Source: Dictyostelium discoideum | Taxonomy: Eukaryota | Assembly: GCA_000004695.1 (NCBI GenBank) | Contig: CH709172.1 | Coordinates: 1-2,343 of the forward strand | Length of the DNA: 2,343 nucleotides | Direction of reading: 5' to 3' | Part shown: positions 1 through 2,343 of the stretch, in pieces | Position numbering within the stretch: position 1 is the stretch's first letter | Layout of the letters: each line of letters starts with the position of its first letter | The notes under the pieces: generated by a model | The model's input: only the letters and a program-made list of their open reading frames with translations | What the model was told of the DNA's origin: nothing | The model's database searches: none | Translations under genes and position numbers: made by a program

Positions 1-232
1 TTATAATAATAATTTAAAAAAAATTTTTAAAAAAAAAAATAGTCTACAAAAAAAAAAGAATTAATTAAAAAGTAAAAGTATTTGAAATCAGAAATTTTTT
101 TATTTAATTGTGAAAATTCTAAGTGTATTAATGACTTTAACAAGGGTCATACAACATTTATAATTGACTAATTTGAAAAGCAGAACTTTATTTCCATTAT
201 AATTTGTACCAAAAGCATACTTTAGAAGGGGC

Positions 233-385
233 AACCTAAAATATAATTATTGTTTTTTAAATTATATTAATCTCTTTATTTTATATTATTTTTTTTTTTT
301 AAAAAAAAAATTATATTGACTTACCAGTAATTATTTAAGTGAAATATCAATTTGATTGAAAAGAAGTGATTGTTGGTATAAAGGT
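233..385. repeat. tandem repeat unit, copy 1
   Basis: Starts 'aacctaaaatataattattg'. Contains T12 (289-300) immediately followed by A10 (301-310). Core 'ttatattgacttaccagtaattatttaagtg' at 311-341. Confidence 0.6.
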
Positions 386-579
386 AACCTAAAATTTAAT
401 TATTGTTTTCAAATTAGTCTATTTTATTTTATTATTATTTTTTATTTTATTTTTTTAATTTTTTTTTTTTTAAAAAATTATATTAACTTACCAGTAATTA
501 TTTAATTGTAGTATCAATTTGTTTTAAAAGAACTGGCGGTTGGTTTTGATAGCATTGGTATTATTGATGAAGTTGAAGA
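386..579. repeat. tandem repeat unit, copy 2 (longer, with an extra 'cattggtattattgatgaagttgaagaa' segment)
   Basis: Starts 'aacctaaaatttaattattg'. T13 (459-471) followed by A6 (472-477). Core 'ttatattaacttaccagtaattatttaattg' at 478-508. Confidence 0.6.
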
Positions 580-684
580 AATCTAAAATAATATTTTTTT
601 GTTTATTTATATTAATCTTTTTATTTTTTTATTTTTTTTATTTTTTTTAATTTTTTTTTAATTTTAATTATCTTACCTTACCAG
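580..684. repeat. tandem repeat unit, copy 3 (truncated; ends at the junction with the retroelement coding sequence)
   Basis: Starts 'aatctaaaataatattttt'. Phased T7-T9 tracts at 621-661. Ends 'tcttaccttaccag' at 671-684. Weak similarity continues into about 705 ('ccagttttgatttagtggagtaa' versus 'ccagtaattatttaagtgaaata'). Confidence 0.5.
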
Positions 685-690
685 TTTTGA

Positions 691-1638
691 TTTAGTGGAG
701 TAATGGGCGATCTAACAACTTCAATGGATCACCAAGTAATGTTGCATCAGGTAGCAACAGTACCAAGTCTGTTTCCAAGTTACGACTATGTTCTTACAAC
801 CGATGCCTCGGAATCAGGTGCAGGTGCCACACTCAAGAAAGGAAACAAGGTAATCAAAACTTGGTCATTCCAATGGTCAACAACTCAATCAAATATGTAG
901 TCAAATCGTCGAGAAATGCTCGCGCTGCTGATGGCCTATCAAGCGCTATGTCGGAAACTGAACAACTGCAAGCTGAAGATTCAAACCGACAACACTACCA
1001 CTCTCTCTTACATCAATCGCCAGGGTGGTCAAATACAAGATCTCTCAGTTCTGTTCGAACAACTTTGGAAACAATGCCTCAAGAAGAAAGTGAACTTGAT
1101 TGGAGAGCATATTCCAGGATTCTTCAATGTAAAAGCCGACCACCTCAGCCGTCTTTCAGAGATGAATCACAAATCATCGTCCAGAGTAATCAAGAGTTAC
1201 AACTGGCAACTGAAGAAGGAAGTGTTCAATCGCATCCAACTTCAATTCGGTCAAATACAGATGGATCTGTTCGCATCTCACCTCAACCATCAAACGAACA
1301 ACTACTCAACAATCAGAATGAATGCACTCCACCTCGATTGGAGTCAATGGAAGCAATGTCTGGCCTTTCCACCTCCCATTCTTTTGCCTTATATCCTGGA
1401 GAAGATGAACTCATCCAGTTCGAAGAAGGTTTCTATAATACTGATCTTCCCAATCTGGAGATCAGCAACTTGGTATCCGATGATTCAAGCACAAGTTCCT
1501 CGTCGTCATCGTCACATGTTTGCTCAAGTACTGGGAACATTCCAAGAAGTATTGACCAAACAATCAGTAGAGTCGATACCAATCCAGATCCAACAACGTT
1601 GGAAACTGGGGATTATTCAACTTTCCAATCTCATGTAA
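691..1638 (+). pseudogene. pol fragment: RNase H plus DIRS-type methyltransferase-like (DLFAS/FPP) domain. N-terminally truncated (no RT) and interrupted by an in-frame TAG at 898-900. The ORF track splits it into 703..900 and 916..1638.
   Basis: Frame 1 opens after TGA 688-690. Catalytic-Asp motif TTDASESGAGATL at 796-834 (D codon 802-804). HIPGFFNVKADHLSR at 1108-1152. MDLFAS at 1261-1278. AFPPP at 1363-1377. Stop TAA at 1636-1638. Both listed ORFs are in the same frame (703 and 916 are both 1 mod 3). Confidence 0.8.
696..1637 (+). other. stop-free frame-3 (-1 relative to pol) reading frame contiguous with the YR CDS. Possible N-terminal extension of the YR ORF, dual-coding with RNase H/MT-like.
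   Basis: After TAG 693-695, frame 3 has no stop for 549 codons to the window end. The overlapping 313 codons translate to a Ser/Asn/Gln/Glu-rich, low-complexity sequence (for example SSTSSSSSSSHVCSSTGN at about 1488-1541). All 23 or so stop triplets in 696-1637 lie in frame 2. Confidence 0.4.
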
Positions 1639-2343
1639 TGTCCTTCGCTCGTACAACAAATACAAAAACAGCTGAGCTGTTAATGAAGTCTTGGGAACCT
1701 TCAACTCTCAAAGTATATAGCTCCAGTTATACAAGATTCCGCAATTTCTGTACTTTGAACTCTTTGAATCCAGCAAACATTACCTTAGTTGTTTTCATGG
1801 ATTATCTTACACATCTGTTCAAACACAAACCTCCGTTAGCCTTCTCAACAATTAACGGTCATCGCTCTATGTTGAATCAGTTGTTACTCCTTAGGAATCA
1901 AACTGATATTGTTAATGATCCATTCATTACAAGAATTATGACTGGTATTCACAAGTTGCGCCCTTCATCAGCAAATTATAAAGAGATATGGGATGCAAAT
2001 CAAGTATTAAAGCACTTATCTACTATCAAAGTCATCCCCAAGTACACATACACTGCGCTATTAAACAAGACACTTGTACTCTGTAAAATGTTTGGTTTAG
2101 CAAGATCATCAGACTTAGTGAAGTGGTCGTTCAAAGGTCTCATTATTACTCCTGACTCAATCAAAGGTCCAGTTACCAATGCTAAAGAACAAAGAAGTGG
2201 TGTTGTTTCAATCTTAAAATTAACATCGTTAGATGATACAAACTCTCAAGTATGCCCTGTTCGCCACCTTGCAACATACCTTAGAGCTTTTAAAGGAAGA
2301 AGAAAGCCCCATTCGGGTGACTCTGTCTTTATTAAGAAAAATC
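1638..2343 (+). CDS. tyrosine recombinase (DIRS/Crypton/phage-integrase type). N-terminal SAM-like domain and the start of the catalytic domain; 3'-incomplete at the window end.
   Basis: Frame 3. ATG at 1638-1640 overlaps the pol stop (ATGTAATG). Translation is MSFARTTNTKTAELLMKSWEPSTLKVYSSSYTRFRNFC...VVFMDYLTHLF...AFSTINGHRSMLNQLL...NYKEIWDANQVLKHL...LLNKTLVLCKMFGLARSSDLVKW. WD codons at 1989-1994. Conserved box-I Arg codon at 2103-2105. No stop through 2343. Confidence 0.8.
   Translation, partial: MSFARTTNTKTAELLMKSWEPSTLKVYSSSYTRFRNFCTLNSLNPANITLVVFMDYLTHLFKHKPPLAFSTINGHRSMLNQLLLLRNQTDIVNDPFITRIMTGIHKLRPSSANYKEIWDANQVLKHLSTIKVIPKYTYTALLNKTLVLCKMFGLARSSDLVKWSFKGLIITPDSIKGPVTNAKEQRSGVVSILKLTSLDDTNSQVCPVRHLATYLRAFKGRRKPHSGDSVFIKKN

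Follow-up and report, generated by a model that had tools for sequence, protein, structure and literature searches.

A recombinase reading frame kept free of stop codons across pol in a dead DIRS-1 copy of Dictyostelium discoideum

Introduction

The window analyzed here, a whole contig of 2,343 bp from D. discoideum AX4, raises the question of why one stretch of DNA should stay open in two reading frames at once. Frame 1 encodes pol-like domains up to position 1638, and frame 3, which continues downstream as a tyrosine recombinase (YR), has no stop anywhere alongside it. The first-pass annotation of the window took this for dual coding from 696 onward, with selection acting on both frames, and likened it to the DIRS-1 group of retroelements. 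We asked what the element is, whether the open frame could arise by chance, what selection acts on it, and what this implies for the synthesis of the recombinase.

Overlap between the ORFs of DIRS-1 was reportedly described by Cappello et al. in 1985. The overlap of its pol and recombinase ORFs is in any case already known from the literature, DIRS-1 having been described with three overlapping ORFs (PMC3950715) and with a long pol/YR overlap (PMC3266345). Piednoel et al. 2011 reported a long pol/YR overlap in half of 28 annotated DIRS1-like elements, including all five fungal ones (PMC3266345), and a cloned ORF II-GFP fusion was expressed in rrpC- cells (PMC3950715).

Results

The contig carries a dead copy of DIRS-1 (Table 1). 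By blastn, its main segment was 97.8% identical at the nucleotide level, without gaps, to an intact DIRS-1 copy (L006), and ten near-full copies from other D. discoideum assemblies were 93-98% identical to the window over 1,570 nt. On the contig itself, the annotated protein is DDB_G0294344 (D. discoideum AX4); the best 120 homologues listed were all Dictyostelium DIRS-1 gene models. The likeness to the DIRS-1 group was thus borne out, the element being D. discoideum DIRS-1 itself. Of the domains that are the hallmark of DIRS-1 pol, the RNase H and methyltransferase-like domains noted earlier in frame 1 were recovered by Pfam as an RT-type RNase H and a Dam-like methyltransferase; the reverse transcriptase (RT) is in the intact copy, whose pol has RT (RVT_1 2e-27), RNase H and Dam domains. 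The other hallmark, a tyrosine recombinase in place of a DDE integrase, appears in the window as a weak SAM-like N-terminal DNA-binding domain (~1677-1886) followed by the start of the catalytic domain, which is cut by the contig end so that the catalytic Tyr lies beyond it; ORF2 of the intact copy has SAM-like and Phage_integrase domains, and homologues likewise carry PF00589. The stop-free frame 3 is therefore DIRS-1 ORF2, the tyrosine-recombinase gene, and its assignment downstream of 1638 was correct from the start.

Table 1. Features of the 2,343-bp window and the evidence for each.
Feature	Position	Strand	Evidence or remark
AT-rich flanking repeat, outside DIRS-1	1-692		three units of ~170 nt each; 11-23% GC
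DIRS-1 GAG (ORF1) 3'-end fragment	693-771	+	blastn 96% to L002 4526-4605, L006 294-373
Deletion junction, AGTCTG microhomology	766-771	+	two blastn segments share 6 nt
DIRS-1 ORF3 (pol) 3' part, frame 1	766-1638	+	Pfam RT_RNaseH 3e-10, Dam 1.6e-12; 97.8% nt identity to intact copy
Private nonsense TAG, pol frame	898-900	+	Ser in all other copies examined
pol terminator TAA	1636-1638	+	frame 1
ORF2 part overlapping pol, frame 3 (-1 frame of pol)	768-1637	+	290 stop-free codons, 18% S
ORF2 non-overlapping part, tyrosine recombinase	1638-2343	+	Pfam Phage_int_SAM_5/4, weak; codon-phase switch

The left part of the window lies outside the element. Only one other copy of the flanking repeat was found (L005 2952-3530, 81-83% identity), and neither Rfam nor a tRNA scan gave a match in the window. 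The minus strand of 1-692 has three perfect intron-like boundaries, CTG|GTAAGT...TTTTAG. A spliced host gene on that strand was rejected: no frame is free of stops in the pieces between the 'introns', and in the homologous copy 'introns' and intervening pieces are conserved to the same degree. Descent of the AT-rich units from decayed DIRS-1 GAG/pol junctions was also rejected, the match being just 11-12 nt (ACTTACCAGTA) and within the range of shuffled controls.

The copy itself is rearranged at its left end. Blastn aligned window 693-771 with L006 294-373 and window 766-2338 with L006 1491-3063; 1,123 nt (1 mod 3) present in the intact copy are absent between two AGTCTG repeats, and with them the pol N-terminus and the entire RT domain. 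In intact copies, ~1.1 kb separates the GAG 3'-end piece from the counterpart of 766-2338, which lies downstream. A deletion of this length swaps the frame registers, so that GAG is read in frame 3 over 696-765, and the ORF2 N-terminus in frame 1 over 703-765. In agreement, frame 3 over 696-770 reads the GAG C-terminus SNGRSNNFNGSPSNVASGSN of the GAG ORF translation, and frame 1 from the ATG at 703 reads MGDLTTSMDHQVMLHQVAT, the natural ORF2 start (703-765 begins MGDLTTSMDHQVM; ORF2 of the intact copy begins ..VMADLTTSMDHQVMLHQVAT). With the junction at 766, the natural pol/ORF2 overlap in the window is 766-1638, ~870 nt, against ~2.0 kb in intact elements. The overlap and the RNase H ORF hence do not begin at 696, as first annotated, the sequence there being the GAG 3' end and the ORF2 N-terminus; and the emphasis on a large overlap was misplaced, for the window holds a shortened form of one that covers all of pol in intact copies.

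The pol frame of the window is also interrupted. Contrary to the statement that frame 2 alone has stops in 696-1637, frame 1 has a TAG at 898-900, a codon that is TCA or TCG (Ser) in 20/20 other copies examined. The TAG is private to the window copy, and its pol is therefore defective; a ciliate-type reassignment of TAG was ruled out, given a Dictyostelium host and Ser at that codon in all the other copies. This DIRS-1 copy is 5'-truncated, with its RT domain removed by the 1,123-nt internal deletion and a nonsense codon in what is left of pol.

In intact copies from all three species compared, the ORF2 frame encloses the entire pol. Its open length is 1,025 codons in the intact D. discoideum copy (L006 251-3328), and 1,044 in both D. 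citrinum and D. dimigraforme; the comparative sample comprised these three closely related Dictyostelium species and a few dozen copies. Pol is in the -1 frame of GAG, and ORF2 in the -1 frame of pol. Pol is without an early ATG, which is consistent with its expression as a GAG fusion, and conservation extends to the point where the ORF2 frame opens on the left (ref 1014-1020) and to its ATGs at ref 1116-1152. Intact ORF2 starts at an ATG within the GAG 3' end and runs for ~1,000 codons, in the -1 frame throughout pol (ORF3), the recombinase being encoded only by the last ~330 codons, past the pol stop.

Both frames are open far beyond chance, and their openness is conserved across species. 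Frame 3 is indeed stop-free from 696 to 2343, the last stop being a TAG at 693-695. A shuffling test that keeps the frame-1 codons had been set beforehand as a possible refutation. In 20,000 codon-order and 20,000 synonymous-codon shuffles of the window, 766-1635 contained a mean of ~15 frame-3 stops and a minimum of 4-5, where none is observed; frame 2, as a control, has 17 stops against 15.5 expected from the same shuffles. Over the entire pol, 30-38 stops are expected in the ORF2 frame (minimum 12), and again none is observed. Stop-free frame 3 is thus not common for this codon composition, and the ~1e-6 given earlier as the probability of such an open frame was of the right order (Poisson, ~3e-7).

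The pol sequence departs from expectation precisely where an ORF2 stop would form. T at the pol third position before AA, AG or GA occurs at 0/64 sites in the window, compared with 69/226 (31%) elsewhere (Fisher 2.7e-9); in each species it is found at none of the 163 at-risk pol third positions, against 29% at other pol third positions. In recombinase-only sequence, T in the same context has a frequency of ~26-37% (27% in the window). Divergence between species points the same way: the 155-171 synonymous pol differences should have produced ~14 ORF2-frame stops, with a minimum of 3 in 5,000 simulations, and have produced none. Purifying selection thus keeps the ORF2 frame stop-free across pol in the three Dictyostelium species.

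Individual copies agree with this, with one exception. The overlap has no ORF2-frame stop in nine of the ten near-full D. discoideum copies. Of only 28 substitutions private to the L005 lineage, in which pol is intact, six created such stops, indicating that stops accrue fast once the constraint is lifted. The L005 copy has a further stop within the recombinase domain, which marks it as a recombinase-dead lineage; the combination of a stop-bearing frame 3 with an intact frame 1, named at the outset as counting against selection, was therefore seen, in one copy of ten, without refuting it.

Selection against stops was not accompanied by detectable selection on the encoded residues. In the three-species comparison, substitutions in the overlap follow the codon phase of pol alone and shift to the recombinase frame just past the pol stop, and no ORF2-phase signature was present anywhere in the overlap. 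Four-fold sites of pol in the window's part have diverged by 0.40-0.44, compared with 0.39-0.58 in single-coding GAG or YR. No Pfam domain was found in the extension alone, and an HMMER search against 1.84 billion representatives listed 150 matches, all at least 47% identical and all close DIRS-1 relatives. Together, these observations argue for selection on stops and not detectably on amino acids; judged by such sequence comparisons, the amino acids of the extension appear free of detectable constraint in the window's part. The proposal of selection on both frames, and the alignment of independent copies suggested as a check on it, hence held as to frame 3 being non-random and actively kept open, and found no support as to amino-acid constraint.

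Could the extension nevertheless be a domain whose sequence is constrained by function, perhaps an arm through which the recombinase is targeted or regulated? Third positions of pol have diverged by 0.30-0.37 in the overlap, compared with wobble divergence of 0.40-0.60 in the GAG-only and YR-only parts, i.e., ~25-35% lower, so that a weak amino-acid or RNA-level constraint may act on the overlap. Some short motifs look conserved (e.g., RLESMEA, ELQLAT and GDYSTFQSHV), and a few are invariant in the three species, but this is mostly explicable by constraint on pol. At ref 1225-1650, in the 5' part of pol that is deleted from the window, four-fold divergence is only 0.14-0.20, and the pattern of divergence indicates that something extra is constrained there. 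True dual coding is unlikely, however, given that four-fold sites in the window are roughly as diverged as single-coding sequence, that an ORF2-phase signature and a Pfam domain are both lacking from the extension, that the matches listed are all close relatives, and that its composition, as the first-pass annotation remarked, is Ser-rich and of low complexity. An AlphaFold model of ORF2 built on a 22-sequence alignment had a mean pLDDT of 35, too poor to judge disorder.

Discussion

Overall, we put at roughly 80% the probability that the window is a dead DIRS-1 copy whose frame 3 is ORF2 purged of stops, and that the recombinase is made by ribosomes that cross all of pol. As to synthesis, the pattern of sequence conservation makes it most likely that the recombinase comes from ribosomes that stay in the -1 frame for the full length of pol. 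Close to the GAG/pol junction, these ribosomes would either initiate at the ORF2 AUG or shift into the ORF2 frame, and would then have to translate through the entire pol. If such passage is required, any ORF2-frame stop in pol would abolish recombinase synthesis; that stops are purged while amino acids are free to change argues for just this. The overlapping stretch would then be no folded domain but an N-terminal spacer, probably disordered and tolerant of sequence change. Counting against such translation, the ORF2 AUG is preceded in the mRNA by ~900 nt that include the GAG AUG.

A fuller version of this scheme is offered only tentatively, and we lean against it as it stands: the ~2-kb overlap would be a translated conduit of unconstrained sequence, and only a minority of ribosomes, those entering the -1 frame ~2 kb upstream at the ORF2 AUG or by slippage at CCGTTTTCAG, would make the recombinase. 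The CCGTTTTCAG tract, just before the GAG stop, is invariant and encodes Phe in all three frames. Were slippage to occur there, one site could set the GAG:pol:recombinase ratio via -1 and +1 shifts. Within the literature accessible to us, we found no description of a stop-only selection regime or of such a conduit as an expression route.

A different route to the recombinase would be a programmed -1 frameshift from pol into ORF2 inside the overlap, yielding a pol-recombinase fusion in the manner of retroviral gag-pro-pol. The frames are suitably arranged, ORF2 being exactly -1 of pol and pol -1 of GAG, and conservation in 3/3 species is seen for a canonical heptamer at ref 1539, T_TTA_AAA. The heptamer, however, codes for the conserved RT motif D-L-K, and its conservation is due to that protein constraint; the ORF2 frame, moreover, is open with conserved ATGs ~400 nt upstream of it, which a shift at that point would not need. 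No conserved X_XXY_YYZ heptamer was found in the window's overlap or in the GAG/pol overlap. We consider such a shift improbable.

Alternatively, translation of the recombinase might start close to the pol stop, at an internal AUG or on a subgenomic RNA, the open frame upstream being a relic. A candidate conserved Met lies in RLESMEAM (window ~1345), and conservation is also seen for the Met codons at ref 2283 and 2880/2889; but these Met codons derive from Gln-Trp pairs of pol (CAA TGG), which account for their conservation. The sole clearly conserved protein sequence does start ~30 nt before the pol stop, and the L005 lineage, with its upstream stops, keeps the pattern of purifying selection in the recombinase domain, although that domain has a stop of its own in L005. 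What makes internal initiation quite improbable is that a relic would hold ~14 stops since the three-species split, whereas none is seen. Lastly, the notion that frame 3 is open as a by-product of base composition or frame-1 codon usage, with no selection of its own, is refuted and retains practically no probability: the element is ~42% GC inside a very AT-rich host, and the pol wobble base is the first base of the frame-3 codon, so that codon bias could reduce stops, but every one of the 40,000 window shuffles contained at least 4 stops (12 for whole pol), T is missing only where a stop would form, and no stop arose between species where ~14 were expected.

As a discovery, the overlap is minor, being a textbook trait of DIRS-1, the founder of the DIRS order, and the window is a broken copy. 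The comparative result, that stops are purged while amino acids are free, narrows the ways in which the 4.5-kb DIRS-1 mRNA may give rise to the ORF2 protein.

The closest known system is DIRS-1 of D. discoideum, with which the window copy shares domains, frame relations and host species. Compared with intact DIRS-1, the window copy is 5'-truncated, lacks RT, has a TAG in pol, and retains 870 nt of the ~2-kb overlap; unlike intact DIRS-1, it joins GAG to ORF2 in frame 3 and the start of ORF2 to pol in frame 1. In other DIRS1-like elements, the recombinase ORF similarly reaches upstream into pol in a different frame, with its catalytic domain in the non-overlapping 3' end. The extension, on the other hand, is non-homologous between lineages (here the matches listed are all at least 47% identical), and the overlap varies in length, with many elements having none.

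Retroviral gag-pro-pol, as in MMTV and HTLV, uses two successive -1 frameshifts. The order in DIRS-1 is similar, with GAG followed by a -1 step to pol and a further -1 step to the recombinase frame, and with no early ATG in pol. Retroviral overlaps are short (tens of nucleotides), with a slippery heptamer and a downstream structure; in DIRS-1, by contrast, the third frame overlaps the second over the full 2 kb and has conserved ATGs of its own. Overprinted genes of RNA viruses also place two long ORFs on the same nucleotides, the newer of the two having a biased composition and a probably disordered product. Where such a gene is functional, the older frame typically shows suppressed synonymous variation, whereas in the window's part of DIRS-1 no such suppression is detectable, and stops alone are avoided.

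Identity and anatomy of the copy

On its sequence, the element in the window is DIRS-1 itself. We compared it with DIRS-1-bearing loci in other assemblies (D. discoideum L002 and L005-L009, D. citrinum L001 and L004, D. dimigraforme L003); the intact D. discoideum copy in L006 (1491-3063) matches window 766-2338 with 97.8% identity and zero gaps. The ORF2 of that intact copy, the tyrosine recombinase (YR) frame, has 1,025 codons (251-3328) with C-terminal SAM-like and Phage_integrase domains, and RVT_1, RNase H and Dam domains are present in its pol. A protein search with the frame-3 translation of 696-2342 gave Dictyostelium proteins only among its matches; one, 'DDB_G0294344, partial' (D. 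discoideum AX4), is 100% identical to the translation. GC content rises from 11-23% in 1-690 to ~42% from 696 on. In the window, frame 1 is the pol frame and frame 3 the ORF2 frame; the frame-3 stretch 696-1637 was without a Pfam match. Public automatic DIRS-1 gene models in Dictyostelium assemblies join the pol and ORF2 frames via invented introns, and such models account for chimeric 'RT + integrase' proteins in databases (P0001, P0009, P0018, P0020).

Features of the DIRS-1 copy in the window
Feature	Position	Frame	Basis
GAG (ORF1) 3' end fragment	693-771		sequence match to intact copies
RT-type RNase H		1	Pfam, 3e-10
Dam-like methyltransferase domain		1	Pfam, 1.6e-12
SAM-like integrase N-domain	~1677-1886	3	weak Pfam match; sole frame-3 domain

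Upstream of 693 lies an AT-rich repeat unrelated to the DIRS-1 copy. It comprises three units of ~170 nt in 1-692, each flanked on the minus strand by perfect Dictyostelium-style intron signals (CTG/GTAAGT ... TTTTAG/); the segments between these signals have stops in all frames. One copy of the repeat, 81-83% identical, sits beside DIRS-1 fragments in another D. discoideum strain (L005 2952-3530).

In intact copies ~1.1 kb separates the GAG 3'-end piece from the RNase H piece downstream of it. The two segment matches share the hexamer AGTCTG (766-771; L006 368-373 and 1491-1496), indicating that 1,123 nt (1 mod 3) were lost between short direct repeats. This deletion takes out the pol N-terminus and the whole RT domain and swaps the registers, so that the GAG C-terminus (frame 3 at 696-770, SNGRSNNFNGSPSNVASGSN) now runs into the ORF2 frame, and the natural ORF2 N-terminus (frame 1 at 703-765, MGDLTTSMDHQVMLHQVAT) into the pol frame. 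The left boundary of 696 that the first-pass annotation gave to a dual-coding stretch is thus an artefact of the deletion. Its statement that all stops in 696-1637 are confined to frame 2 is likewise wrong, because frame 1 has a TAG at 898-900. This codon is private to the window, being TCA or TCG (Ser) in 20 of 20 other copies; a single C-to-A substitution in TCG is its simplest origin. Judged from these lesions, the window's copy is dead for pol. Differently deleted DIRS-1 copies also occur, e.g., L005 4277-4356 followed by 4466-5110.

The ORF2 frame is open beyond chance

A stop scan confirmed that frame 3 is stop-free from 696 to 2343, and the open frame is real and statistically robust. 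The first-pass annotation had named shuffling that preserves frame 1 as a refutation test. We ran 20,000 shuffles of each of two types, permuting either frame-1 codons or synonymous codons within each amino acid; across 766-1635 these gave a mean of ~15 frame-3 stops and a minimum of 4-5, against 0 observed. The other alternative frame, as control, had 17 stops versus 15.5 expected. For the whole pol of intact copies, 30-38 ORF2-frame stops were expected and none observed. At pol third positions in the window that precede a codon beginning AA, AG or GA, T occurs at 0 of 64 sites versus 69 of 226 elsewhere (Fisher 2.7e-9); 16 of 60 such contexts carry T in the recombinase-only part.

Conservation across copies and species

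We projected 35 copies and fragments onto one common coordinate system. In D. citrinum and D. dimigraforme, intact copies keep the recombinase frame open over 1,044 codons, stop to stop, starting within the GAG 3' end and enclosing all 667-670 pol codons; the frame likewise runs open across pol in the intact L006 copy and in the D. discoideum consensus. Of ten near-full D. discoideum copies, nine lack any ORF2-frame stop in the overlap. Stops in the pol frame occur sporadically, and each copy carries 44-48 stops in the third frame. Between species, pol differs at 155-171 synonymous third positions; simulating as many synonymous changes produced ~14 ORF2-frame stops (minimum 3 in 5,000 runs), versus none observed. 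T is found at 0 of 163 at-risk pol third positions per species versus 29% at other sites, and the at-risk positions are themselves 41-67% diverged. The zero stops and the lack of T at diverged at-risk sites therefore show that anti-stop selection acted throughout the species' divergence.

The exception, a copy at L005 9933-13132, has an intact pol without frameshift; in the ORF2 frame it carries six stops within the overlap and a further one within the recombinase domain. Of its 28 private substitutions in the overlap, 5, 4 and 19 lie at pol codon positions 1, 2 and 3; pol was still selected in that lineage and ORF2 was not. Copies with frame-3 stops and intact pol, named beforehand as evidence against selection on both frames, are thus formally seen (one of ten), but here the recombinase is also dead. 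This copy mainly shows how fast stops build up once ORF2 is not needed; in its lineage pol may have been kept while recombinase was supplied in trans.

Selection acts on openness

The claim of selection on both frames stands as far as the open frame has been kept; for the amino acids of the extension (the pol-overlapping part of ORF2, 768-1637 in the window), no selection was detectable in the window's overlap. Between-species divergence in the overlap is 0.30-0.37 at pol third positions, 0.09-0.13 at first and 0.04-0.07 at second, and the wobble signature of the recombinase frame sets in only at the pol stop. At four-fold degenerate pol sites, divergence in the window's part is 0.40-0.44, about that of single-coding GAG-only (0.46-0.58) and recombinase-only (0.39-0.58) sequence. 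The extension is Ser-rich, as first described (18% Ser). A HMMER search with it alone against 1.84 billion representatives gave 174 matches; identity among the 150 listed, all of them fragments, ranges from 47 to 91%, and many are Dictyostelium DIRS-1 gene models already matched by the frame-3 search. Given the pol-phase substitutions, the roughly equal four-fold divergence and the matches listed, only selection for openness is detectable in this region.

Ahead of the RT core, the 5' part of pol (ref 1225-1650 of the extended L003 copy, minus strand, with ref x = L003 16827 - x; L006 ~415-840), deleted in the window, has a four-fold divergence between species of 0.14-0.20, compared with 0.4-0.6 elsewhere in the element. 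The added constraint could come from an RNA element, from genuine dual coding, or from a signal for frameshifting or packaging.

Possible routes of ORF2 expression

Pol is in the -1 frame of GAG, and ORF2 in the -1 frame of pol. Since the full 2 kb has been kept clear of stops, we infer that ribosomes making recombinase must enter the ORF2 frame near the GAG/pol junction; they would then read through the whole overlap to the recombinase, with the overlapping stretch as a tolerant spacer. All three species share the position of the ORF2 frame's left end, ORF2 ATGs lie at ref 1116-1152 within the GAG 3' end, and the first pol ATG comes no earlier than codon 61 in D. dimigraforme and codon 139 in D. 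citrinum. At the GAG stop, CCGTTTTCAGAAGAACAAGAAGTAAA (L006 ~385-420; ref 1195-1230) is conserved in three species and invariant in six of seven aligned copies; its T4 tract encodes Phe in all three frames (GAG CGT TTT CAG; pol CCG TTT TCA; ORF2 GTT TTC AGA). As pure speculation, CCGTTTTCAG, which is invariant and directly precedes the GAG stop, could be an entry or slippage site.

A -1 frameshift from pol into ORF2 was also considered, and one conserved heptamer, T_TTA_AAA at ref 1539, would suit it; however, this heptamer encodes the RT motif D-L-K and falls outside the window, and there is no other conserved heptamer. If translation began internally, or from a subgenomic RNA, close to the pol stop, the upstream stop avoidance would be left unexplained. 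In the literature searched, no paper was found on how ORF2 is translated.

Relation to known DIRS-1 architecture

The proposed match to the YR/pol overlap of the DIRS-1 group held, given the 97.8% identity to intact DIRS-1 and the published overlap. What our analysis adds is small: evidence for selection on stop-freeness only, which limits models of recombinase expression. A published account gives the DIRS-1 mRNA 'three overlapping ORFs', in which ORF II has its 5' end adjoining the ORF I 3' end (PMC3950715). [quoted passage not shown] The overlap is thus a defining, already known DIRS-1 trait, rediscovered here in a defective copy.
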